From positions 1 to 54,684 of IMG/VR virus record IMGVR_UViG_3300036791_000093: a stretch of 54,684 nt of DNA; one strand, written 5' to 3'. The stretch comes from a virus. Lineage: Duplodnaviria > Caudoviricetes. Below, one piece after another: positions 1,927 through 54,529 of the stretch; position 1 is the stretch's first letter, and every line of letters starts with the position of its first letter. The notes under the pieces were generated by a model. That model ran no database searches. It was not told where the DNA came from and worked only from the letters and a program-made list of their open reading frames with translations. Position numbers and translations under genes: made by a program.

Positions 1927-2309
1927 GTGCTACGGGACTTCCCGCAGCCCTGACTAACGACAAGATTCGCAATCTCTACGCGAATCGTCGCAAGAAGGGT
2001 CTGTATCTCGATCTGCTTCACAACTTCCTCGCGATGAACATCGCGGGTGTCGGTGCTCGTGAGACTTGGCCGACTGAGTTCCCGGTGGTCACCATCGATG
2101 AGGATGGTGAGAAGTCTGGCAAGCAGGTCACTTCCATCAAGCAGGGATTCGATAACGCGAAGGAGAAGAAGGACGCTCCTGAGGGTGCTGACAAGGTGGA
2201 CGTGATCGTCGATGGTGATGAGGTCTACCTCATCAACCGCGGAATCTACAACCCGGATGAGGTCGAGGCCGAGGTCGAGGTTCCCGATGTCGAGGCTGCC
2301 ACGGTCTAG
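1923..2309 (+). CDS. Hypothetical protein, paralog of 48555..48941
   Basis: AAAGGA RBS; shared motifs NDKI..LY..RR.KG.Y, RE.WP..F, QGF.NA, DVI..DG.EVY and an acidic tail. Confidence 0.85.
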   Translation: MSATGLPAALTNDKIRNLYANRRKKGLYLDLLHNFLAMNIAGVGARETWPTEFPVVTIDEDGEKSGKQVTSIKQGFDNAKEKKDAPEGADKVDVIVDGDEVYLINRGIYNPDEVEAEVEVPDVEAATV

Positions 2310-2315
2310 TAACAA

Positions 2316-2398
2316 ATCAAGCCTAGCCTTCATGGCTAGGCTTGATAGACTAGCTCTCAAGCGAATGCGGTCGCAGGGAGCTAGTCTATCAAGTCTAG
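2316..2398 (+). promoter_or_regulatory. Two overlapping, mutually exclusive intergenic hairpins
   Basis: ATCAAGCCTAGCC/GGCTAGGCTTGAT (2316-2346) overlaps CTTGATAGACTAGCTC/GAGCTAGTCTATCAAG (2341-2393). Confidence 0.75.
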
Positions 2399-2411
2399 TG
2401 GAGGTAATCAC

Positions 2412-5846: not shown

Positions 5847-6065
5847 GTGGATATGGCAGAAATTCGCCTTACCGATGGGCAGGTGGCTCTCGTTGACGAC
5901 GAGGATTTCGAGCGTGTATCGCAATTCACATGGCAACCTATAAAGATAAACGGGAATACGCACGCAGGGACTTACGACATACCAACGCCGGACGGACGAC
6001 CTGTGTTAATGGAAAACCTCGTTATGCATCTAGCAGAAATCGATAAAGCTAGTAGAGAAAACTGA
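5847..6065 (+). CDS. N-terminal module of HNH-AP2-type homing endonucleases, nuclease domain absent (possible remnant)
   Basis: IRLTDGQVALVDDEDFERVSQFTW resembles the N-termini of 16167..16577 and 45113..45589. Confidence 0.6.
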   Translation: MDMAEIRLTDGQVALVDDEDFERVSQFTWQPIKINGNTHAGTYDIPTPDGRPVLMENLVMHLAEIDKASREN

Positions 6066-6589
6066 TGTTACTACCAAAAGAACTCAGAGAAATTTCAGGT
6101 TTCCCTGGTTATTTTGTTTCTTCTGGTGGTAGAGTCTTTTCGACTTTCTACAATAGAGGCACAGATTTCAGAGAACTCAAACTTAAACGCGGTTGGCACG
6201 GTTATATGGAAGTAACTTTGTATTCTTCTGGGGATTCTCCTAAAACCATGTTAGTCCACAGAATTGTAGCCCTAGCTTGGCTACCTGCCCCAGAAAATTC
6301 TTCATTTATACAGGTTCGACATTTAGATGATGATCCAACCAATAACGAGGTTAGTAATCTTGCTTGGGGTACTGCTGCAACAAACAATCGAGAACGTTCT
6401 ACTACTCTTCTAACAGAACAAAAAGTGAGAGAAATAAAAGAACTTCTCAAAATACATAGAAGATCGCGCGGAGAAACTGGACATGCAGACGGTAAATTAA
6501 CTTACGCAGAAATAGGAAAAATGTATGGTGTATCGAAACTTACAATTTCTTCTATAGCAAATGGGAAGAGTTGGAGAGATGTTGACTGA
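6065..6589 (+). CDS. NUMOD4-HNH homing endonuclease with C-terminal HTH
   Basis: GYFVSSGGRV (NUMOD4), VHRIVA, VRHLDDDPTNNEVSNLAW, LTYAEIGKMYGVSKLTIS; AT-rich. Confidence 0.9.
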   Translation: MLLPKELREISGFPGYFVSSGGRVFSTFYNRGTDFRELKLKRGWHGYMEVTLYSSGDSPKTMLVHRIVALAWLPAPENSSFIQVRHLDDDPTNNEVSNLAWGTAATNNRERSTTLLTEQKVREIKELLKIHRRSRGETGHADGKLTYAEIGKMYGVSKLTISSIANGKSWRDVD

Positions 6590-7859
6590 GATCGCTCAAA
6601 CAGCGTCAGGTCTGTATAAGCCCCCAGAGATACCTAATAAATTTGACATCATTCCAATCCATAATTCTGACCGTGCATCGTTTAAACACTGTCGCAGATA
6701 CTTTGATTGGTCTAGTCCGACTCGTCATAATCTTAGCCTACGTGCAGATACACTTGGAATCAATACGGATCTTTTCTTCGGAACCGGGATACACTACGCA
6801 CTCGAACAATACTACCACCCAGGACTTAGACGTGATCCGGTAGAGTCATGGAGAACTTGGTTTGATGTTCAGTGGAGAGGCGGTACAGTAACAGAAGATT
6901 GGCTGGATAAGGTGTATGATCTGGCTCCCAAAGCGGTCGGGGGCGTCGATAATGGGAAGCCAGATCATAGACTTTATCTAGTAAGAGGCTTGCAGGACAT
7001 TCTTCCTGATGCCGATAGTGAACTGTATGATGAATTGTTCACACTCGGCGTTGAAATGATGACTGCGTATAAGCCTTATGCTGCTAGGAAAGATGAGTTT
7101 GAAGTCCTAGTAGTTGAGCATGATTTCTCAATCCCCGTATGGGATTTTGAGAATGAGTGCATCCTCACCGCTGTAGATTTGCGTGAGCAATCACCTAACT
7201 ACGGTAAGCGGTTAGAGGTACATTCTCGTGGTCGTATGGATGCCATTTGGCAGAAGCCTAGTGGTAAGTACGGCATCATCGACCACAAGACATCAAGCCG
7301 GATAGACGATGACTACTTTGATAAGTTGGAGACTGATGAGCAGGTCACGTCATACGCTCATGCAGCCGAAATTGAAGCCAAGTATTACGGACTTCCGTAT
7401 GCTGGTTTCCAAGTCGAGGAAGTGGTGTATAATGTACTCCGCAAGACATTCCCGCGTCCTCCTACGATGGTTCGTTCTGGCCTATTCTCCGTCGATAGAC
7501 AAAACGAATCAACCACATACGAAATGCTTATGGAGTTCATCCAGCAGAACAACATCGACATCGAATCGCTCGACGAGAAGCATCAGGCGTACATCGCATA
7601 CGTGCGGGATTCGGGCGTAGAACAGTGGTTCATTCGTAAGCTGGTAAGACGGAATCGTAGTCAGCTACAACAAGCCGGATATAGGCTGTACCTTGAAAGC
7701 CTAGACATGCTTGACCCGGATCTGCGTATCTATCCCAACTTGTCAAACAACTACAGGTGTATGCGTTGCCAGTTCCGCGCGCCATGTCTGATGATCGAAT
7801 CAGGAAATGATTGGCAGAGCGTACTGGAAAGCAACTACACGCACAGTCGGGATCGCTAA
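6579..7859 (+). CDS. Cas4/AddB-like PD-(D/E)XK exonuclease
   Basis: FKHCRR, GTGIHYALE, GRMD, IIDHKT, QVTSY, C-terminal CMRCQFRAPC (Fe-S ligands). Confidence 0.88.
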   Translation: MLTEIAQTASGLYKPPEIPNKFDIIPIHNSDRASFKHCRRYFDWSSPTRHNLSLRADTLGINTDLFFGTGIHYALEQYYHPGLRRDPVESWRTWFDVQWRGGTVTEDWLDKVYDLAPKAVGGVDNGKPDHRLYLVRGLQDILPDADSELYDELFTLGVEMMTAYKPYAARKDEFEVLVVEHDFSIPVWDFENECILTAVDLREQSPNYGKRLEVHSRGRMDAIWQKPSGKYGIIDHKTSSRIDDDYFDKLETDEQVTSYAHAAEIEAKYYGLPYAGFQVEEVVYNVLRKTFPRPPTMVRSGLFSVDRQNESTTYEMLMEFIQQNNIDIESLDEKHQAYIAYVRDSGVEQWFIRKLVRRNRSQLQQAGYRLYLESLDMLDPDLRIYPNLSNNYRCMRCQFRAPCLMIESGNDWQSVLESNYTHSRDR

Positions 7860-7955
7860 TTCGATTGAAAGCGATTAGTCTCCAAGGTTCCCATTAAGCA
7901 TCTGGAGCCAAGGTGCGCACGCAGGGAATACAGGGACTAATCGCTGTCAATCGAA
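7860..7955 (+). promoter_or_regulatory. Long intergenic stem-loop
   Basis: TTCGATTGA-A-AGCGATTAGTC pairs with GACTAATCGCT-G-TCAATCGAA around a ~50-nt loop. Confidence 0.75.
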
Positions 7956-8633: not shown

Positions 8634-9417
8634 TCTGAGGGAAATCCTGCAAGTTAGGCCACCCGACGAAATTTTGGACTGGCTTAACATGCTTGTCTAC
8701 GGTGATCCTGGTGCTGGTAAGACGTGGCTAGCAGGTACAGCAGATGATGACCCACGTACTAGCCCTGTGCTGTACTTGGATTGTGAGGGTGGCGTTACTA
8801 CGATCAGGCATCGCAGAGAGATTGATGTGGTGCCTGTTCGTTCCATCCCGCAACTCGAAGATATCTACAACAAGCTGTATCACTCGATCGATCAAGAAAC
8901 CAACAGCATCCAGTATCGTACTGTTGTCATCGATCCCGTGACTGAGCTAGCCGATCTGGATATGCGTACCATAATGAAAGCCGCGTATGCATCCAAGCCG
9001 GAAACGGTGGATATCGACGTGCCAAGCCCACGTGAATGGGGTAAGAACAGGAATCACATTCGTTTGATCGTTAGAGCGTTTCGTGATCTTCCATGTCACC
9101 TCATCATCACAGCACACGCCAACAAGAAGGAAGAAGAGAATCAGCCTACCAAATATTTTCCTGGTTTCGCTGGTAAGTTGGCAACGGAGATTCCCGGTTT
9201 CATGGATATTGTGGGATACTTGTATGCAGAATCAAAGACGGGTACCGTGCAGCGTAAGATGCAAGTGCAAGGTACTCGCAGAATCCAAGCGAAAGATCGT
9301 ACATCTCGCTTGGGTGCTGTTGTCACAGATCCCACGATCCCGATGTTATGGGACATGATATCGGAAGATGATGTGTCTCGCAGTACACTTGATTCAACTG
9401 AAGAGACAATCGGGTAA
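8608..9417 (+). CDS. AAA_24/Sak4-like ATPase (recombination)
   Basis: LVYGDPGAGKT, VLYLDCEGG, VVIDP, IITAH, DIVGYL, AKDR. Confidence 0.88.
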   Translation: MSVAAIQPDLREILQVRPPDEILDWLNMLVYGDPGAGKTWLAGTADDDPRTSPVLYLDCEGGVTTIRHRREIDVVPVRSIPQLEDIYNKLYHSIDQETNSIQYRTVVIDPVTELADLDMRTIMKAAYASKPETVDIDVPSPREWGKNRNHIRLIVRAFRDLPCHLIITAHANKKEEENQPTKYFPGFAGKLATEIPGFMDIVGYLYAESKTGTVQRKMQVQGTRRIQAKDRTSRLGAVVTDPTIPMLWDMISEDDVSRSTLDSTEETIG

Positions 9418-9450
9418 CAACGGCTAACAACGGTTAACAACGGCTAACAA
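9411..9450 (+). repeat. 4 x 10-bp tandem repeat CGGNTAACAA
   Basis: cgggtaacaa cggctaacaa cggttaacaa cggctaacaa, directly before the SSB RBS. Confidence 0.9.
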
Positions 9451-9458
9451 GGAGTGAT

Positions 9459-9962
9459 ATGGCTGGCCCACTGAACCTCAGTGATGCTGATCTTTCTGGT
9501 TTCGAGCCTGTCGATGCCGGACGCTACAACGCGGAAATCGTGGAAATCAACTGGGACACGGTGAAGAACCTGGATGGCAGGGGTAAGATGCCTGCTGGTA
9601 CTCCCATGTTGAAGATCCGCTTCAAGATCGTCGATGATGGCCCTGCCCACAATCGCAACGTGTGGGTCACGTATGTCAATCCTCCGGCGGATTACGATCC
9701 GTCGAAGGCTGCGAAGATGCGTGGCATGATCGCTCGTTTCTTCATCGCTTGTGGTGACACCGAAGAGACGGTACGCAGCGAGTCTTTCGATCCTGACTTC
9801 GATGACTACAAGGACAAGGAAGTCGTGGTTGTCGTGGGTAAGGAGCCGAAGCGCGATCGTGAGGGTAACCTCATCGATGGCGAGTTTAACAATCCCGTCA
9901 AGGGAGTTAAGCCCGCCGGTTCCATCGCTACTGCTACTGCGACGGGTAGCGATCTGCTCTAG
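9459..9962 (+). CDS. Single-stranded DNA-binding protein (DUF669-like)
   Basis: FEPVDAGRYNAEI, PMLKIRFKI, N.VKGV; follows the exonuclease and AAA genes. Confidence 0.8.
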   Translation: MAGPLNLSDADLSGFEPVDAGRYNAEIVEINWDTVKNLDGRGKMPAGTPMLKIRFKIVDDGPAHNRNVWVTYVNPPADYDPSKAAKMRGMIARFFIACGDTEETVRSESFDPDFDDYKDKEVVVVVGKEPKRDREGNLIDGEFNNPVKGVKPAGSIATATATGSDLL

Positions 9963-18958: not shown

Positions 18959-18969
18959 TAGTGTAAAGA

Positions 18970-19034
18970 GTTAGAGGGATCGCAGCTCACTTGTAGTGGG
19001 AGAGAGTCACACACAAGGGCGCGATCCCTCTAAC
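18970..19034. terminator. Inverted repeat between the convergent gene arms
   Basis: GTTAGAGGGATCGC / GCGATCCCTCTAAC. Confidence 0.7.
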
Positions 19035-19045
19035 ACTTCACTGAC

Positions 19046-45589: not shown

Positions 45590-46052
45590 TTTTAAATTGT
45601 TGGAGTTCCTCATGGGTGTAAGTATTACCGGACTGCTTATCGGGTGCAGGCTCGGGTGTGGTTTCAAACAAGCCATTAATCAGATCGCGGATGGGATCGC
45701 CCTCGAAACGTCCTTCCTCGAAGGCTTCCTTGAGTACTGTGGTTGAGGCTCGCAATCTGATCGATTCACTATCGCTGTTCTGAGCAAGCCACACAATCTG
45801 GAGTGCAGCTTCCTCAGCATGTGTACGGAACAAATCTCGTGCGGCTTTCTCCACGTCCTGCGGTCGCCGCTTTTCCTCAGCTTCCTTGGCTTGTGCCTCA
45901 GCGAACTCTTCCCTGAGAGCTGCGGCGTACTCCTTAAGTGCGCTTTGCGCCATTTCCTCGGTAAGGCTGTCATCTGGGCTAACGGGGGTTTGCGGCGTGG
46001 GTGGGGTTTCTGCATCTGGATCGGGTACGTGAGTATGTGGCTCGTCGGCCAT
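45570..46052 (-). CDS. terS: Putative terminase small subunit
   Basis: Helical protein upstream of terL; SESIRLRASTTVL; ATG at 46052. Confidence 0.6.
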   Translation of the reverse strand: MADEPHTHVPDPDAETPPTPQTPVSPDDSLTEEMAQSALKEYAAALREEFAEAQAKEAEEKRRPQDVEKAARDLFRTHAEEAALQIVWLAQNSDSESIRLRASTTVLKEAFEEGRFEGDPIRDLINGLFETTPEPAPDKQSGNTYTHEELQQFKNENSTS

Positions 46053-46068
46053 GCGTGGAAGTATAGCA
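46053..46068 (-). promoter_or_regulatory. Extended -10 promoter giving a leaderless terS mRNA
   Basis: Minus strand TGC-TATACT-7 nt-ATG with no SD sequence. Confidence 0.6.
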
Positions 46069-46116
46069 ACGTTACTCGGTGGCACGGCTGGACACAGGGA
46101 TATCGCAGGAATGAGG

Positions 46117-46134
46117 TCAGATTATATAATCTGA
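46117..46134. promoter_or_regulatory. Perfect 18-bp palindrome TCAGATTATATAATCTGA
   Basis: Read directly; upstream of the late operon. Confidence 0.7.
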
Positions 46135-46190
46135 TGTAGGCTCGTTTTGGTGATTCGGTACACCCAAGACGATAGCGCATCATGTATAAA

Positions 46191-46230
46191 AAAATGGCTG
46201 AAAACAATGCTTTTCGTTTTCAGCCATTTT
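46191..46230. repeat. 15-bp perfect inverted repeat
   Basis: AAAATGGCTGAAAAC-10 nt-GTTTTCAGCCATTTT. Confidence 0.85.
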
Positions 46231-46276
46231 ACATTGGTGAGTGACTCATTTCTGAGTCACTCACCATTCCAGTGTC

Positions 46277-47353
46277 CTAGTTCACATCGCCCACGTAGCC
46301 CACTACTGCGGCCATGCGCGCGACGTCCGGTGTTGCGAGTGCGGCTAGCCTTGCCTCGCTCACCTTGCTCACTGTGCTCACCTTGCTCACGTGAGTAGCC
46401 TCGCTCGTGTCCTCCACGGGCGCATCGTTGCGCGTCACGTAGTCACTCACGCGCCACAGTGTGCGCGTGTACTGCCTCGCTCCGTACCTCGTGCCAGCGC
46501 TCACGCGCGGCGTGTAGACCGTGAGGCTTGCCAGTGTCGGAGTCTTTCTCACGAGCGCGATTACACGCGCGTAGTCCTCGTGCGTAGCGTCCGGGTGAGT
46601 GCCAGTTCCCACTACGTTTAGCGGCGCGAGTAGGTCTACAGGGCCGTGTGCGTCGCGCACGCTGACCCGCTCGTTTAGACCCTTCACTCCACGGATTCCA
46701 GTAGCCCCGCGCGGTGAGACACGAGCCTCACGCGCGTTGACCATGCCGCGCCACGGCGCGGGATCGTAGCCCTCACGCGGTGAGTCTGACGTGAGTACCG
46801 CTCCCGATTCCATCGCGCGTGCCATAGCAGCGGCTACGCGCCTGCCTCGCGGCGTCAGTCCTTCCACGCGGTCTAGTTCCGCCACGCGCTCACGTGACGC
46901 TACATCACGCACGATTGCCACGAGATACCGCGCGTCACGGTTCAGTAGTGAGCGCGTCACGTTGTACGTGTGTGCCTCACGCGCGAGTGTGTCGGGACGA
47001 TTGAGTAGCGCGTCAGTAGCGGCGCTCACGTGCTCCCCCCAGTAGCCCTGTAGACCAGACTTGCGCGTGAGCATGCCGCACGTGTGATTCCAGCGTGCCG
47101 CGTGCCTTGCCTCACTCACGCGGCGCGCCTCACTCGCGAGTGTGTCTACGCTCACGTGTGCCGCGTAGCTCACGTCCGGCCGTGTGTCAGTGTGATTCGC
47201 CGCGAGGCATGCCGCGTGCGCCTCGTTGTACTCGCGCGCCATCCGTGCCGTGTACCGCTTGGCTAGTGCCAATCGTGCCGCATGATGCGCCATTGCGCGT
47301 TGCCGTAGCGCCGCTACGTTCCGCGCGATTTCCTCTCTCGTGTACGTGTTCAT
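46277..47353 (-). CDS. Orphan Ala/Arg-rich protein with no Phe, encoded in a TT-depleted strand
   Basis: 358-codon ORF, GAAAGGA RBS 7 nt before ATG, TGC-TACTCT upstream. Confidence 0.75.
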   Translation of the reverse strand: MNTYTREEIARNVAALRQRAMAHHAARLALAKRYTARMAREYNEAHAACLAANHTDTRPDVSYAAHVSVDTLASEARRVSEARHAARWNHTCGMLTRKSGLQGYWGEHVSAATDALLNRPDTLAREAHTYNVTRSLLNRDARYLVAIVRDVASRERVAELDRVEGLTPRGRRVAAAMARAMESGAVLTSDSPREGYDPAPWRGMVNAREARVSPRGATGIRGVKGLNERVSVRDAHGPVDLLAPLNVVGTGTHPDATHEDYARVIALVRKTPTLASLTVYTPRVSAGTRYGARQYTRTLWRVSDYVTRNDAPVEDTSEATHVSKVSTVSKVSEARLAALATPDVARMAAVVGYVGDVN

Positions 47354-47458
47354 GGGTGAGTCCTTTCGGGTGAGTGTGACGCGCGCCTCATGCGCGCACC
47401 CCCAGAGTAGCAGCGGCGCGCGGTTGCACGTGTCCCTACCCCTAGAGTACGCATAGCT

Positions 47459-47704
47459 TGGCTGAAATGTTAGGACTGTCCTTACATCTCAGCTTGGCTG
47501 GCTGGCACCGTGTCTCTCGTGAGGCACGGTGCCTCACACGGCACACGGCACACGTGAGGCACACGACACGTTTAGGTGTCGTGTCACACTTGTGTGTCAC
47601 GACTCAGATATGGGTCGTGTCACTTTTCTGTGACATGACCCAGATATGGGTCGTGTGACTTATCTGTCACCACACACTTTCCTTACATTTCAGGAAAGTG
47701 GTGG
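47459..47704. repeat. Cluster of short palindromes and direct repeats
   Basis: GGCACCGTGTCTC/GAGGCACGGTGCC; ACACGACAC/GTGTCGTGT; CAGATATGGGTCGTGT twice; CACTTTCC/GGAAAGTG. Confidence 0.8.
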
Positions 47705-47722
47705 CTACAGTGTGAGAGATGG

Positions 47723-47778
47723 CGCAAGTCAGCAAGTCAGCAAATTCGCAAGTCAGCAAGTGTACAAATTCGCAATTT
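47723..47778 (+). repeat. Seven tandem degenerate 8-mers (consensus (A/C)GCAA(G/A)T(C/T))
   Basis: cgcaagtc agcaagtc agcaaatt cgcaagtc agcaagtg tacaaatt cgcaattt. Confidence 0.85.
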
Positions 47779-47837
47779 GCTAACTTTTCAGATCGCGCGC
47801 CTGCTTTAATAAAAACAGCACAGGACGGGGGAATCAA

Positions 47838-48122
47838 GTGAAAGGCGTGAGCAACCTAGAGTTGCTTGCCTCATTTGGTAACTCTCGCAAGTCAAGTGGA
47901 AACGGACTGTTCCGAATCACTGAGGAAGATGGAACAGTCACCTTCCAACGTGGCGCCGCGAGTAGTTCGCAGATAGGCAAGTTTGAAGGAAAGTCGGGTG
48001 GCATGGTTCGCTCGGCTAAGGGTGCTACCCGTCGTAAGTTGGACGGCCGGCGTTACTACGTTCCCGGTGCAGACTCACCCTACCCGCTAGTCGCGTACAA
48101 AGCGGCTACGGTGGTTAAGTAG
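47838..48122 (+). CDS. Basic hypothetical early protein
   Basis: ACGGGGGA RBS; first ORF of the rightward arm. Confidence 0.6.
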   Translation: MKGVSNLELLASFGNSRKSSGNGLFRITEEDGTVTFQRGAASSSQIGKFEGKSGGMVRSAKGATRRKLDGRRYYVPGADSPYPLVAYKAATVVK

Positions 48123-48343
48123 GAAACGGTAATAGGCCGGATAAAGGGTTACTCAGTACCTTGTGTCGCCAGACACGAACGTGTGTTTTCTGAAAACTCT
48201 GAGTACTCTGGCGGGAACCGCCTCAGAAGTTACTATAACCTACTACTTAACTCTTACTAACCATGTATTCCAGAACGGAATAGTTAGTTGAGTTAATAAT
48301 CTTCTGCGAAAACTATTGAATCCTGCAACGGTTGGATAGAGGG

Positions 48344-48387
48344 CGAACATATGTTCTCTTGACTTTCCCACGGCGCGCTGATAGGAT
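48344..48387 (+). promoter_or_regulatory. SigA promoter with adjacent LexA/SOS-like box
   Basis: CGAAC-ATAT-GTTCT (48344-48357) next to TTGACT-17-TAGGAT. Confidence 0.7.
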
Positions 48388-48554
48388 GGTTTACAACTTC
48401 CGAACTTTTCAGCCAAATCGTGGGTATCCTACAAGTGTGGGGCAGATGGGAGCTGCGTAAGTCACGTGGGGAAGGGTGAGCCTCACGTGACTCACGGAGC
48501 TTGACTCACAAACTCCACTCAACATAAACACAACGCAAGAAAGGAACAAAGCAA

Positions 48555-48941
48555 ATGGGTCTGTCGAATGACAAGATCCTTGCGCTTTACTCCGATCGCC
48601 GCCAGAAGGGTATCTACGGTGCCCGGCTTGGTGAGGCAATCGAGTCCGACGAGGCTGCTTTCAATCCTCGTGAGGCTTGGCCGCTTGACTTCAGTAAGAA
48701 GTCTGCGACGACTCTGTATCAGGGGTTTCGCAACGCGGCTGACAAGCTGGACAAGGGTATCGCGGAGGACATCGATGTCATCCAGCGTGATGGCGAGGTC
48801 TACGTGTGCTTCAAGTCTCGCATCGCTCTCATCCTCAACGAGTCCACCCAGGTGGACGAGGACGAGTCCGACGACAACTCCAACTCCGGTGACGAGCCGG
48901 AGTTGGAGGTCGAGTCCGGCGAGCCTGCTCTGGTCGCCTAG
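48555..48941 (+). CDS. Hypothetical protein, paralog of 1923..2309
   Basis: AAAGGA RBS; shared motifs; acidic tail. Confidence 0.85.
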   Translation: MGLSNDKILALYSDRRQKGIYGARLGEAIESDEAAFNPREAWPLDFSKKSATTLYQGFRNAADKLDKGIAEDIDVIQRDGEVYVCFKSRIALILNESTQVDEDESDDNSNSGDEPELEVESGEPALVA

Positions 48942-48949
48942 CAAGTCAC

Positions 48950-49135
48950 AGCTAGCTACGGTGTCACAACCTAGCTAGCTATTGTACTAAAGTGTGCTGT
49001 CAAGGCAAGTTAGACAGCGGGGAAATCTCACGTCCCGGCAACAGAATAGTGAGTGACAGGTGCCGATAACCTGGATGAAAACGGTGTTGCGTAGGCAACT
49101 AATGACAACCCCGTAACCTACGATGCGGGGTTAAC
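48950..49135 (+). ncRNA. Candidate structured intergenic RNA
   Basis: Hairpins AGCTAGCTA/TAGCTAGCT, GCTGTC/GACAGC, GGGA/TCCC, CGGCA/TGCCG, GTTGC/GCAAC, AACCCCGTA/TGCGGGGTT. Confidence 0.5.
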
Positions 49136-49171
49136 ACAAGTTTGTTAAACCACAACGGGAAAGGAACCAAG

Positions 49172-49711
49172 TTGTCCTCGGTTGAAACCAACGCGCCTGC
49201 TACTGAGCAGGACGAGTTTCTGGCGAGGGTCAAGAAGGAAAGGGTCAAGTACGATACTCTCGTGGCTTGGCACCTTACCGCGCATGTCGATGCCAAGCTG
49301 AGTCTGCCTTGGAGCGGTGACAACACGTACATCAGTTGTTCCGTGAACAAGGTGGATGACACTGGTAACGAGCTTTACGGTGAAGTGGACGAGGCTAAGA
49401 CAGTCGAGTACCTCGCTCGCGTCATCAAGTACGCTCGTCGCAGGAAGTTCAACGTGGAGAAGGACTACTCCGGTGACCAGTTCACCGTGAAAGTCAAGGT
49501 TCCCATGAACGGCTTGCGTGTCGATGCTGACCCGAACCAGTACGGCAACTATGTCATCGTGAACTACTACGCTGACAGGAATGCCGTGTGTACTGCGAAG
49601 GTCGTGGGACAGAAGGTTGTCCCGGCTCACACGACTCCTGAGCGTGTCGAAGATGTCGTGGAGTGGGAGTGTGCTAAGCTCTCATTCCTCGGCGTGGACA
49701 CCGAGGAGTAA
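49172..49711 (+). CDS. Hypothetical protein
   Basis: AACGGGAAAGGA RBS before TTG; strong C/G third-position bias. Confidence 0.8.
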   Translation: MSSVETNAPATEQDEFLARVKKERVKYDTLVAWHLTAHVDAKLSLPWSGDNTYISCSVNKVDDTGNELYGEVDEAKTVEYLARVIKYARRRKFNVEKDYSGDQFTVKVKVPMNGLRVDADPNQYGNYVIVNYYADRNAVCTAKVVGQKVVPAHTTPERVEDVVEWECAKLSFLGVDTEE

Positions 49712-49720
49712 CAAGTTACA

Positions 49721-49822
49721 ACTAGCCCAAGTAGGGCTAGTGAAGTATAGCGGAAACAAAAAATGAGGTGGGGCCAATTGAGCGTCCATCCAAGGTTGCT
49801 GCTATACTTCACTAACCCTACT
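49721..49822 (+). ncRNA. Long intergenic stem with overlapping alternative hairpin
   Basis: AGTAGGGCTAGTGAAGTATAGC / GCTATACTTCACTAACCCTACT. Confidence 0.6.
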
Positions 49823-49841
49823 AGCTAAGGCGGTGATTAAG

Positions 49842-49940
49842 ATGCTCGTTTGCAAGGTGCATGGCAAGATCGCTCTCAAGGAAGTGGTGATCGTCATCAC
49901 CAAGCCGATCATCTGCCCCCTCTGCCTGTGCGGGGTTTGA
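49842..49940 (+). CDS. 32-aa Cys-rich microprotein
   Basis: AAGGCGGTGA RBS; MLVCKVHGKIALKEVVIVITKPIICPLCLCGV. Confidence 0.6.
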   Translation: MLVCKVHGKIALKEVVIVITKPIICPLCLCGV

Positions 49941-49964
49941 TTCAAGAGGGCCGCTCAAGTAACA

Positions 49965-50214
49965 AGCAAACCTTAGCAAGTAGGTTTGCTAGGCCATAGC
50001 GGATGAGAGAAACTAGAGGTAGTCTAGCGGCTAGCGTCTAGTGTAATCCGTGCGCTATAAAGACCGTTTTGGACAGTATAAAACAGAGCGGTTTTAAGTT
50101 GAAGCTAAGTCGCATGGCGCGACTAATGCGGACGGTAGCTCCGTCTTAGACTTAAGACTCAACTGTTGACTGTATCCTATATTCGGCTGCGTAAGCTATG
50201 GCCCAGCAAGCCTA
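49965..50214 (+). ncRNA. Candidate ~230-nt structured ncRNA closed by a 20-bp stem
   Basis: TAGGTTTGCTAGGCCATAGC / GCTATGGCCCAGCAAGCCTA; several internal hairpins; no ORF. Confidence 0.65.
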
Positions 50215-50252
50215 TTAAGGGCTAATCCACTCAGCTAAAGGGGGTGAGTTAA

Positions 50253-50411
50253 TTGACTAGCGGAGATATCGCTAAGTGGCATTTCCAGCGTCTCTGGCAT
50301 GGTCGTAATGACGAGCAAGTGATTGTGTTCGCTAACGGTCACGTCTACGGCAAGTCCGAGCGTCGCAAGTCTGTCAAGCAACTCATCGTCCAAATGAGGC
50401 AAGGAAAGTAG
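50253..50411 (+). CDS. Small hypothetical protein (52 aa)
   Basis: AAAGGGGGTGA RBS; MTSGDIAKWHFQRLWHG... Confidence 0.6.
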   Translation: MTSGDIAKWHFQRLWHGRNDEQVIVFANGHVYGKSERRKSVKQLIVQMRQGK

Positions 50412-50419
50412 GTGACGAC

Positions 50420-50578
50420 ATGGGCGCAGCGGTAAGATACAGGCCGTGTCCTAAGCATCCTAATCACAAAAGATTCGGTAACAGGATTGCTCAGACTCTC
50501 ACGGCGAGCAAGCCTCATCATCCGATCATCAAGCCCAACGCATGGATCTGTCACGGGTGCAGCGGGTACCATAACTAA
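50420..50578 (+). CDS. Small Zn-finger protein (52 aa)
   Basis: AGGTGA RBS; CPKH...WICHGCSGYH. Confidence 0.6.
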   Translation: MGAAVRYRPCPKHPNHKRFGNRIAQTLTASKPHHPIIKPNAWICHGCSGYHN

Positions 50579-50604
50579 CCGACAAGAACGGGAGCGTATA
50601 ACAA

Positions 50605-50946
50605 GTGGCTAATCAGCTAGGTGCTGAGAGGCTTGAAAGGCTCATCAATCAGTGTCGCGAGAAGTGTGAGACACTTGGTCCCGATGAGCTTAACAAGCTC
50701 GATCAGGCCATGGCTGTTGAGTTTGACGAGCACTTCAAGTTTCAGCAGACTCAAGCTGAGGCTCACGTCATGGAGTTGCTCTCAAGTGACGCAGCTAACA
50801 TCGTGTACCAAGCCCTCGGTGAGGTTGGCTCCAGTAGCAATGGTGGCTGGGCCAAGAATACCGACACGGCTACCAAGGTCATCGTGACTCAACTCATGGC
50901 GGAGCTTCTCAAGATGAAGCTCAAGTCACGTGGCGTAGCCGTCTAG
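50605..50946 (+). CDS. Hypothetical protein
   Basis: AACGGGAG motif upstream. Confidence 0.8.
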   Translation: MANQLGAERLERLINQCREKCETLGPDELNKLDQAMAVEFDEHFKFQQTQAEAHVMELLSSDAANIVYQALGEVGSSSNGGWAKNTDTATKVIVTQLMAELLKMKLKSRGVAV

Positions 50947-51027
50947 GCTAGTAACAAGTTGCGGGAAGTGTGACGTGTTGGATAGTAGCGGGTGTCACAC
51001 AAGTTGGTACGGGGTTAAGCCAACACC

Positions 51028-51213
51028 TGTAGTTGAATGAGACACACCCTAGTAACATGCCGAAAGGCAAAGGTAAGGGTTCGATTCCCAAACTAGTGCT
51101 AGGTTGGTAGCTACTGATGCCCTGTTGCATAGCACAAACCACGGGTTGGAGATTGTTGCAACAATCTTCCCAATTGTGGGACAAATGCTCTGGGTGTGTC
51201 TCATTGAACTACA
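51028..51213 (+). ncRNA. Candidate structured ncRNA with tRNA-like T-arm
   Basis: 22-bp closing stem with one mismatch; TGCC-GAAA-GGCA; GGG-TTCGATT-CCC. Confidence 0.65.
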
Positions 51214-51220
51214 AGCCCGA

Positions 51221-51369
51221 GGTTGTTGCGACGGGTGCAACGTGTAAGAGTCTAGTCAACCGCCTATGCACAGTTTGACTGACTGTGAAGCCAGAAGCTT
51301 TAGTTGGCTGGCAAGCCGGAGTCACGTGAAATTACCGGAAGGGTAACCGTTGCACCATTCGGAACAACT
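51221..51369 (+). ncRNA. Candidate structured ncRNA
   Basis: GGTTGTTGCGA..GGTGCAACG / CGTTGCACC..TCGGAACAACT closing stem with internal hairpins. Confidence 0.55.
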
Positions 51370-51388
51370 AAGGGGGTGATATAACCCA

Positions 51389-51715
51389 GTGAAGAACATG
51401 GGAAGCAAGTTCGAGTACAAGTGGTTTGAAACCTGCGTCGAATGGGTCGGAGACAACGAAGATCCAGACGAGTGGGACAATTTCGATGACCAAGAGTGGG
51501 TTCCCGAGGATAGTATTCGTGCCGTCCTCAACGAGCTTGGTAAAGAGCCGTGGGATAGCATCGATGTCCGCACGGATGAAGTGATCTGCTATCCCGCAGA
51601 CAGTCATCAAGACTTCCGAACGGGAGTCCACACGAGTAACCAACTCATCATAAGGGTCAAGTACCCTCGGTGGGTTGATCGGCTCATGTCCTGTCACTAC
51701 AACCACAAGCACTAA
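51389..51715 (+). CDS. Acidic hypothetical protein
   Basis: AAGGGGGTGA RBS. Confidence 0.75.
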   Translation: MKNMGSKFEYKWFETCVEWVGDNEDPDEWDNFDDQEWVPEDSIRAVLNELGKEPWDSIDVRTDEVICYPADSHQDFRTGVHTSNQLIIRVKYPRWVDRLMSCHYNHKH

Positions 51716-51716
51716 C

Positions 51717-51893
51717 GTGAAAGTTTCAGTGTCGTTGGATAACGAGACTGCACAACTTCTGTTGGCTATCAAGGCCGATCAGAAGCGGATGATATCGCAT
51801 ATCGTCCAAGATGCACTAAGACTCTACGCGGATCAGATGGGCTACGAGCTTATCCCCGCAAGAGTGGTCAAACACGACAAAGCAAGTCAGTAG
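51717..51893 (+). CDS. Ribbon-helix-helix DNA-binding protein
   Basis: MKVSVSLD....LL.......R.ISHIVQDALRLY. Confidence 0.75.
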   Translation: MKVSVSLDNETAQLLLAIKADQKRMISHIVQDALRLYADQMGYELIPARVVKHDKASQ

Positions 51894-51924
51894 TAAGTCA
51901 ACAACAAAACGGGAGAACAAGCAC

Positions 51925-52194
51925 ATGGCTGGTGTCGTTCTCTTTCTGCTCGTGTATCTCGGTGGCCTGATCTGGGCTACTGTGATTGCCGTGCAGAAAG
52001 GCAAGGGCACGATGGCTGTTTGTGGGTGGTTGCTTTTCACGCCTCTGATCGTGATTGCGGCTTGCCGTATCGCGAAGCCTAACTCAAGTTGGGCGCGTGA
52101 GAAGTACCAGTACGATCCCATAAAGGCCAACGTGTCTCAGATGCGTTTCCCCAAGGAAGCGTACATGCTCAAGCAGCTCACTGAAACTGCGTAG
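51925..52194 (+). CDS. Small membrane protein
   Basis: Two hydrophobic segments; AAACGGGAG motif upstream. Confidence 0.8.
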   Translation: MAGVVLFLLVYLGGLIWATVIAVQKGKGTMAVCGWLLFTPLIVIAACRIAKPNSSWAREKYQYDPIKANVSQMRFPKEAYMLKQLTETA

Positions 52195-52241
52195 TTGAGC
52201 GGCTAGCCAAGGTTACATACTTGGCTAGCTAACTGAACTAC
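52191..52241 (+). promoter_or_regulatory. Long intergenic hairpin
   Basis: GTAGTT..GGCTAGCCAAG / CTTGGCTAGCT..AACTAC. Confidence 0.7.
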
Positions 52242-54476: not shown

Positions 54477-54529
54477 CGGTAGTAGAACGGAGCACTCACT
54501 AATCAAGTGAGTGCTCTACTGTACTACCG
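54477..54529 (+). promoter_or_regulatory. Long intergenic hairpin
   Basis: CGGTAGTA..GAGCACTCACT / AGTGAGTGCTC..TACTACCG. Confidence 0.7.

Follow-up and report, generated by a model that had tools for sequence, protein, structure and literature searches.

RNase III acts on double-stranded RNA of about two helical turns. The early mRNA of phage T7 is cut at intercistronic hairpins, and the RNase III processing sites of this transcript, reportedly characterized by Dunn and Studier, each form a simple hairpin of about 60 nt that contains an internal loop. In bacterial rRNA operons, long-range stems flank the 16S and 23S rRNAs and are cut by RNase III, the precursors being cleaved within the long stems around the mature RNA. 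U-less terminators have been proposed in actinobacteria. In T4-type phages, intergenic cassettes consisting of a promoter plus a stem-loop (PeSLs) lie upstream of small early ORFs, where they terminate transcription and bring about modular shuffling (PMC2839356).

The window studied here, i.e. the whole stretch of 54,684 nt, is a complete 54.7-kb phage genome with terminal repeats and of soil origin; the uncultured phage is probably an actinophage and its host probably actinobacterial. GenBank phages gave no DNA match to positions 49400–52000 and none to the first early protein, and early-protein searches for close relatives found none in viral contigs or metagenome contigs, G001 being the only relative with an alignment. 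The early-protein pattern had 0 matches in bacterial genomes, and the search of sequencing runs returned a single DNA run, probably the one from which the record derives, and no RNA run carrying window sequence. In the early segment 49712–51388, 875 of the 1677 nt fall outside the best ORFs. A non-coding share of more than half over 1.7 kb is unusual in a phage and is not explained by annotation pipelines.

Four long stems in the early region

The earlier note had proposed that this segment holds an array of RNAs, each closed by a stem of about 20 bp and interleaved with microproteins. An arm search found the four closing stems at the positions it had given: S1 (arms 49730–49757/49795–49822, 28 nt, 89% complementary, 25/28 Watson-Crick, 37 nt enclosed), S2 (49981–50000/50195–50214, 20 nt, 90%, 18/20, 194 nt enclosed), S3 (51028–51049/51192–51213, 22 nt, 95%, 21/22, 142 nt enclosed) and S4 (51222–51242/51348–51368, 21 nt, 86%, 18/21, 105 nt enclosed). 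The features of the segment are as follows.

49728..49824, + strand: S1, 26 Watson-Crick pairs over 30 positions; family A member
49814–49830 with 49971–49987, + strand: bridge pairing, 17 nt, 88% complementary
49833..49940, + strand: 35-aa ORF, microprotein candidate; ATG at 49842 after a GGCGGTGA-type leader
49979..50216, + strand: S2, 19/22 Watson-Crick; interior with several hairpins; family C member
49995..50072, + strand: family C core, asymmetric, made up of two nested helices and of unpaired stretches that are invariant
50253..50411, + strand: 52-aa ORF, preceded by a strong Shine-Dalgarno-like leader
50420..50578, + strand: 52-aa ORF without a family match; contains Cys/His pairs
50605..50946, + strand: 113-aa gene with a conserved counterpart in L029 (64% identical over 107 aa)
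50958..51003, + strand: small hairpin at the start of a 442-nt non-coding stretch
51026..51215, + strand: S3, 22/24 Watson-Crick; interior with four predicted hairpins
51219..51371, + strand: S4, ending right at the 108-aa gene's ribosome-binding site
51389..51715, + strand: 108-aa gene downstream of S4

The microproteins were also present, as three ORFs (35, 52 and 52 aa), each preceded by a Shine-Dalgarno-like leader. They gave no Pfam match below E 0.01 (the best, at E 0.022, lies far under the curated cut-off), and none of the three has a homologue in the relatives' loci.

The stems are not expected by chance. Folding energies gave z values of -6.81 (S1), -4.69 (S2), -5.48 (S3) and -4.27 (S4) against 200 dinucleotide shuffles per element, none of which folded as well as the element itself. 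Three stems with at least 17 Watson-Crick pairs occur in 49700–51400, where 300 shuffles gave a mean of 0.003 and a maximum of 1; S4 is missed by the stem-extension rule of this count because of its adjacent mismatches. The whole window holds eight such stems, as opposed to 0–2 in 20 shuffles, and all eight fall in the arm with + strand genes.

On the ORF map, S1 to S4 are intercistronic with co-oriented genes on both sides, and the flanking cistrons presumably share one transcript. A Shine-Dalgarno-like AAGG/GGAGG run lies within the 12 nt 3' of the 3' arm in at least five of the seven stems examined. As the earlier note had said, U-tails are absent: the 12-nt stretch beyond each 3' arm is not rich in T and a terminator scan found none at the stems, so the GC-rich hairpin followed by a U-run that marks an intrinsic (rho-independent) terminator is not formed. 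Its statement that deviations from pairing are often G-U compatible did not hold for these stems, in which G-U accounts for 2 of the 9 non-Watson-Crick positions.

The bridge is a pairing between the S1 3' arm and the S2 5' arm; it encloses the 35-aa ORF and its ribosome-binding site, and is incompatible with the simultaneous formation of S1 and S2. Its duplex has an energy of -18.0 kcal/mol, equalled by 2 of 200 shuffles, and G001 has the same layout. Complementary ends on every mRNA segment could not be upheld as a rule, as seven of the eight consecutive pairs do not exceed shuffles, S1 to S2 being the exception.

Related stems and conservation in distant relatives

Similar stems had been reported elsewhere in the window, at 2336–2398, 7860–7955, 52191–52241 and 54477–54529. 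All but the third were recovered as such, the third being a shorter, interrupted stem.

2316..2398, + strand: hairpin with the clade-wide stem-base motif CTAGGCTTGA ... TCAAGTCTAG, ending at the next gene's ribosome-binding site; an additional copy of the 3' motif lies upstream
7860..7955, + strand: intercistronic stem, 20/21 Watson-Crick, 54-nt interior
52191..52241, + strand: interrupted intercistronic stem upstream of a 229-aa gene, folding at -28.3 kcal/mol
54477..54529, + strand: intercistronic hairpin, 20/24 Watson-Crick, 5-nt loop

Across the clade, long stems recur between early genes, often rich in CTAG and often with their end just 5' of the next ribosome-binding site; early intercistronic stems of the same kind occur in relatives with only 41–49% protein identity. 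In the arms, CTAG was observed 45 times versus 6.4 expected (7.0-fold enrichment). In 32 non-overlapping long stems, taken from five relatives and the early arm of the window, G-U mismatches are more frequent than A-C mismatches on the sense strand (34 versus 15, binomial p 0.009), an excess that is weak within the window alone. GNRA/UNCG tetraloops were not enriched beyond the coding control. Folding energy favours the sense strand in 23 of 30 elements and in 75–86 of 120 coding control windows; since the coding controls share the bias, this asymmetry is not discriminating. Window positions 48938–49145 were considered as a member of a family B and dropped, the alignment being unconvincing.

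The earlier note had named a lack of covariation as grounds for abandoning its interpretation, and compensatory changes were found in two of the four elements, S1 and S2; no homologue was found for S3 or S4. Family A comprises S1 and its homologues at L034 431–541 and L032 817–936. Of its 115 cells, 90.4% are paired; of its 39 pairs, 17 are changed on both sides, a number reached by 0 of 500 shuffles, and slid controls give 2–5. Family A interiors are poorly conserved. Family C comprises S2 and its homologues at L029 8069–8287 (= L024) and L034 906–1157. In its closing stem of 21 positions, 60 of 63 cells are paired and 10 of 21 positions are compensatory; an A-C mismatch at one position is common to only two of the three stems. 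In the core helices, 3 of 14 pairs are compensatory. With only three members per family, the statistical power is low. S1 and S2 are kept by compensating mutations in distant relatives and are therefore real structured elements.

A model (R1) of the family C core gave 78.7–88.1 bits for the three members and at most 12.2 bits for everything else in 246,691 bases. The strict core pattern occurred in viral contigs only in L024. With the relaxed pattern, 16 loci were obtained, including 15 new ones, but R1 accepted none of these as a member: the best score was 21.1 bits and did not extend beyond the pattern. L045 is an unrelated coding region. Neighbouring proteins of the family C relatives are only 26–64% identical, and families A and C occupy different gene junctions in different genomes. 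The core is non-palindromic and keeps a single orientation, a point in favour of a strand-specific molecule; its conservation over a large evolutionary distance makes it a candidate functional phage RNA.

Resemblance to RNase III sites and alternative readings

Being long enough for RNase III, intercistronic and without U-tails, the stems fit processing of the T7 or the rRNA type. With the T7 sites they share i) the intercistronic position in an early polycistronic operon, the common transcript being deduced from the gene map, ii) a helix of about two turns without a U-tail (18–25 Watson-Crick pairs in 20–28 positions, where about 20 bp or more is typical) and iii) a location just upstream of the next ribosome-binding site, with the structure kept among relatives. 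However, they are not simple hairpins with a small apical or internal loop, a form approached by S1 alone; three of the four enclose 105–194 nt of further folded RNA, with a conserved core in one family. Moreover, the present stems are candidate rather than established cut sites and belong to a phage with a probably actinobacterial host. For S2, S3 and S4, in which a long-range helix encloses structured RNA, the rRNA processing stalk is the best architectural match: as in the stalks, flanking sequences, here 140–240 nt apart, would pair into a long helix around a structured RNA. As far as the alignments indicate, S1 and S2 also share with such stalks a helix conserved by compensatory change. 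They differ in that the cargo is small and the setting is a phage mRNA.

The stems are most likely RNA-processing signals, and their helices of ~20–30 bp probable RNase III substrates. Our leading, if tentative, reading is that the four elements are cis-acting structured RNA modules in an early polycistronic transcript processed by RNase III. Once this transcript is made, the sequences flanking each non-coding insert would pair into a helix of ~20–30 bp; the host's double-strand-specific RNase III would cut there and so divide the transcript into separate messages, leaving base-paired ends that would slow exonucleases and freeing the enclosed RNAs of 37–194 nt. We infer the action as RNA rather than DNA, the cutting by RNase III and the existence of stable or functional cargo RNAs. 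The earlier interpretation as a whole is supported in part: the compensatory changes in S1 and S2 speak for it, its proposed cargo roles are unsupported, and its G-U argument fails for the four stems.

Besides the low power of three-member families, the lack of homologues for S3 and S4, the weak G-U signal in the window and the coding-control outcomes for folding asymmetry and tetraloops, several observations weigh against processing. The 105–194-nt cargo is unlike T7 sites, compensatory change is equally expected of a DNA hairpin or cruciform, and strong promoters in or beside some G001 stems fit a promoter/terminator cassette. The last of these would make the stems terminators or attenuators, independent of factors and without U-tails, by which small early genes are insulated; they would sometimes be coupled to promoters, with the shared arm sequences as recombination points for cassette shuffling among relatives, a reading that we consider unlikely. 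Its precedent is provided by the PeSLs, which are likewise intergenic cassettes that recur next to small early ORFs of unknown function. They have stem-loops with G-T pairs, are placed after a stop codon and ahead of the following Shine-Dalgarno sequence, terminate transcription and are associated with gene shuffling (PMC2839356). G001 carries five + strand TTGACA-17-TATxxT sites (10–11 of 12 matches), one beginning exactly at the 5' arm of a stem and one just upstream of a stem. The differing gene junctions of families A and C, the common clade-wide motif and enriched CTAG of the arms, and a probable actinobacterial host, a group in which U-less terminators have been proposed, are also in its favour. 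PeSLs, however, are defined by a strong sigma-70 promoter, and none was found in the window's four elements: a scan for sigma-70-like promoters gave no + strand site in 49700–51400, and the totals were not in excess in the window (5 versus 4.8 expected from shuffles) or in L029 (5 versus 6.0). PeSL stem-loops are short terminators that carry no large cargo, and the 105–194-nt interiors with conserved cores are unlike terminator hairpins. Near-identical repeat copies suited to homologous exchange are also absent from the window.

Less probable still is that the enclosed RNAs are stable, trans-acting phage small RNAs (tRNA-like, decoy or anti-defence), the closing helix being only a protective scaffold, with or without processing. 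The asymmetric core of family C, with its unpaired stretches invariant despite the divergence of neighbouring proteins, would suit such RNAs, as would a tRNA T-loop-like 11-mer on one predicted hairpin of the S3 cargo (51078–51088) and the genuine tRNA-Tyr genes that relatives carry in these early regions. But only the T-loop aligns with these tRNAs, so a tRNA remnant in the S3 cargo was rejected as unsupported, and family A interiors are poorly conserved. ARAGORN found 0 tRNA genes in the window. At the gathering score, Rfam gave no match in the window and two true tRNAs only in the loci of 11 relatives; at E ≤ 10, the window gave three chance-level miRNA/snoRNA matches only. Searches for YrlA (RF02553) and a Ro/TROVE partner gene (PF05731) found none, and no target or partner can be named. 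The roles suggested earlier for the cargo (decoys, antitoxin-like RNAs or RNA anti-CRISPRs) are unsupported, no repeat-like sequence or known RNA family being detected. Least probable, and in our view very unlikely, is a function at the DNA level, as hairpins in single-stranded or supercoiled DNA serving replication or recombination, or as a mobile palindrome (MITE, attC or REP-like). Co-variation between the arms of the inverted repeats, conservation of the outer motif, variable genomic junctions and HNH endonuclease genes in the same arm would agree with it. Yet no transposase, integrase or HUH gene was found among 40 proteins scanned, multiple near-identical copies are lacking, and the outer (stem-base) motif had 9 scattered matches in 596 Gb of bacterial genomes, none of which tblastx linked to the phage studied here; the near-identical copies, recombinase and presence in host genomes that mark MITE, REP or attC elements are thus not seen. 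Cruciforms are disfavoured by interiors as long as 194 nt, every stem is intergenic and follows one transcriptional orientation, and the sense strand has more G-U than A-C.

Significance for soil actinophages

Neither of the two conserved structured RNAs, families A and C, has an Rfam counterpart, and the literature, searched at the level of listings and the openings of abstracts, gave no description of such an RNA family. A more far-reaching proposal, which we put forward as speculation and hold to be rather improbable, is that uncultured soil actinophages of one clade share a modular RNA system of the 'clamp and cargo' type. In it, a processing activity would recognize the semi-conserved stem base, CTAGGCTTGA ... 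TCAAGYCTAG or a variant, and release interchangeable small RNAs, including the ~240-nt family C RNA with its conserved core, that would act in host takeover or counter-defence, and shared arms could re-pair (S1-bridge-S2) and so switch micro-gene expression.

The elements mark junctions at which gene order differs among relatives, which bears on the shuffling of the early region. If the stems processed as proposed under our leading reading are indeed cut, the T7 device of punctuating early mRNA by RNase III would extend to soil actinophages, in a form nearer to rRNA processing, with a folded RNA cargo at each cut site.

The phage and its uncultured clade

The 54,684-bp record is a complete virus genome with direct terminal repeats of 127 bp. 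Only one sequencing run, of soil metagenome DNA, contained the region, and this run is probably the source of the record. The plus-strand gene arm, from about 48.5 kb through the genome end to about 19 kb, contains small early genes and genes for helicase, exonuclease, primase, DNA polymerase and two HNH endonucleases, and the minus-strand arm, from 19 to 47 kb, encodes terminase, portal, capsid and tail proteins. Since 21 of the 24 phage records matching the lysin-like gene, which carries an Rpf-type transglycosylase domain (PF06737), take their names from Rhodococcus, Mycobacterium or Streptomyces, the host is probably an actinobacterium.

The divergent arms are separated by about 1.1 kb of non-coding DNA (47400–48550), probably with early promoters and/or an origin, in which several direct and inverted repeats were seen, including a 19-nt unit at about 47606 and 47641 and GTCAGCAAGT-like words repeated at 47728–47760. 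A 358-aa ORF rich in Arg/Ala at 46277–47353 on the minus strand, in the stretch with the genome's highest GC content (0.585, 46001–48000), had no PHROG or Pfam match and may thus not be a real gene. Immediately before the ribosome-binding site that serves the gene at 9459, a 9-nt repeat (form GGYTAACAAC) occurs four times in tandem at 9405–9450.

None of the cultured phages is close: identity of the DNA polymerase was below 30% to every GenBank phage, and the first early protein had no match among them. Single early proteins used as queries against viral and metagenome contigs recovered no close relatives. The DNA polymerase query retrieved 9 loci (61–74% identity), one of them on G001, a record of 56 kb; the first early proteins of G001 and the window share 49% identity. 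A degenerate DNA pattern encoding a 13-residue block of the first early protein returned 7 viral and 7 metagenome loci; all 14 encode this protein, and together they define an uncultured clade. In its early intergenic spaces, closing stems of 13–30 pairs enclose interiors of 3–258 nt. The early region of G001 (locus L017) also carries, on the gene strand, five near-consensus TTGACA-17-TATxxT sites (173, 1327, 1805, 2156 and 4672), of which one coincides with the 5' arm of a stem and another directly precedes a stem; sites of this type are far fewer in the window.

Long closing stems and their arms

The earlier note had located all four closing stems correctly.

Long closing stems S1 to S4, with fold z-scores of each element against 200 dinucleotide shuffles
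S1, 49730–49822 (+): 25/28 Watson-Crick (WC) pairs, interior 37 nt, z -6.81
S2, 49981–50214 (+): 18/20 WC pairs, interior 194 nt, z -4.69
S3, 51028–51213 (+): 21/22 WC pairs, interior 142 nt, z -5.48
S4, 51222–51368 (+): 18/21 WC pairs, interior 105 nt, z -4.27

For each element, none of the 200 shuffles folded as well. Stems with at least 17 WC pairs numbered 3 at 49700–51400, compared with 0.003 on average in 300 shuffles, and 8 in the whole window, all within the plus-strand gene arm, against 0–2 in 20 shuffles. According to the ORF map, non-coding sequence makes up 875 of 1677 nt at 49712–51388. The lack of U-tails noticed previously was borne out, with no T-run after the 3' arm of any stem, and, in a set of 7 stems, at least 5 have a Shine-Dalgarno-like run within 12 nt past the 3' arm. 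Deviations from complementarity had been described as often G-U compatible; only 2 of 9 in S1–S4 are.

A further stem (6903–6981, 24/29 WC pairs) lies inside the listed ORF 6561–7859. Since exonuclease homology begins only at residue 151, the true start of this ORF is probably downstream, and the stem would then be intergenic, after the HNH gene at 6065–6589. The 21-nt stem at 18963–19041 (19 WC pairs), exactly where the two gene arms converge, is a candidate two-way terminator. The 8-mer GTAACAAG occurs 8 times in the window (1.36 expected; 8 reached in 0 of 100 shuffles), at 1191, 2816, 12348, 49708, 49959, 50951 and 52245 on the plus strand and 29955 on the minus strand, mostly at a stop codon that closely precedes or follows a long stem; it also follows the first early gene in loci L034 and L031.

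The genome has fewer CTAG sites (134) than its base composition predicts (213), yet the clade's stem arms contain 45 where 6.4 would be expected, a 7.0-fold enrichment, and 19 of 56 stems carry it. The stem base CTAGGCTTGA ... TCAAGYCTAG is common to several otherwise different elements (window 2336; S2, in a weaker form; L034 906; G001 1616; L021 1736 and 11806; L029 8977), with G-U frequent at one position on the sense strand. Because their arms are alike, neighbouring elements are able to re-pair: the 3' arm of S1 can pair with the 5' arm of S2, enclosing a 35-aa ORF, and an equal three-way arrangement is present in G001. Re-pairing is not a general rule: of 8 consecutive pairs in the window, just one does better than shuffles.

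Conservation and relation to known RNAs

Whole-region nucleotide searches against the relatives gave matches in coding parts only, and further homologues came from element-by-element comparison. Family A comprises S1, L034 431–541 and L032 817–936, and the alignment takes in the leader running from the stop codon before the element. In its RNAalifold structure, 90.4% of 115 cells are paired and 17 of 39 pairs have changes on both sides, compared with 2–5 such pairs in slid controls; none of 500 shuffles reached any of five measures. Family C comprises S2, L029 8069–8287 (identical in L024) and L034 906–1157. In its closing stem, registered from the base, 60 of 63 cells are paired and 10 of 21 positions show compensatory changes; the stem encloses a conserved core (about 60 nt) that is not palindromic and has two nested helices (3 of 14 pairs compensatory). 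With the core covariance model, the three members scored 78.7–88.1 bits and nothing else in 246,691 bases of loci exceeded 12.2 bits; IMG/VR pattern scans gave no further member. S1 and S2 are conserved structured elements supported by covariation, and the refuting sign of absent covariation named in the earlier note does not apply to these two. No homologues of S3 and S4 were found.

The family A model also matched other long-stem elements weakly (window 2298–2411, E 0.0065; L021 925–1130, E 0.0003; L029 8943–9068, E 0.01), and such elements of the clade therefore have a loose architecture in common. Another conserved stem-enclosed element, family B (G001 1692–1810 and L029 7199–7349), has two common blocks (~30 and ~25 nt) enclosed by closing stems that differ in sequence; window 48938–49145 was not a convincing member.

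ARAGORN found no tRNA genes in the window, Rfam gave no match at gathering scores and only three chance-level matches at E up to 10, and YrlA RNA and a Ro/TROVE gene are both absent. The S3 cargo, i.e. the sequence enclosed by its stem, contains a tRNA T-loop-like 11-mer (51078–51088); outside it, no alignment with the relatives' tRNA-Tyr genes was obtained, and a tRNA remnant in this cargo was set aside as unsupported. The 11-mer was also noted in L009, and L030 and L031 carry it shortly after their first early gene, outside any tRNA context. The early regions of L021/L026 and L032 contain genuine tRNA-Tyr genes.

Possible roles of the stems

Helices of 20–30 bp in a transcript are expected substrates of RNase III. 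Given helices of this length, a layout like that of the T7 early operon (stop codon, stem, ribosome-binding site, next gene) and the enclosure of folded RNA by a stem, as in rRNA processing stalks, the plausible reading ranked best is that the stems would act as modules for RNase III-type processing, as the earlier note proposed, and for stabilisation, each with an RNA cargo, although we hold it tentatively, at somewhat less than an even chance. The cargo functions suggested there (decoys, antitoxin-like RNAs, RNA anti-CRISPRs) are unsupported; trans-acting cargo RNAs are possible at lower odds.

The main rival is a terminator or promoter cassette resembling the promoter-early stem-loops (PeSLs) of T4-type phages (PMC2839356). 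Some G001 stems contain or adjoin strong sigma-70-type promoters, and the families occupy different gene junctions from genome to genome; both would fit such a cassette, but S1–S4 lack such a promoter and enclose cargos far beyond the size of terminator hairpins. DNA-level palindromes are likewise possible at lower odds, and action as RNA in the gene sense is favoured over a possible DNA-hairpin role by the way the stems lie in uniform orientation between genes of one direction, the large and folded interiors, the asymmetric, conserved family C core, and an excess of G-U over A-C (34 versus 15, p 0.009; 32 non-overlapping stems from the window's early arm and five relatives). Folding energy was uninformative, the sense strand being favoured in 23 of 30 elements and also in 75–86 of 120 coding control windows, as were counts of GNRA/UNCG loops.

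The stems are real and extend across the whole clade.
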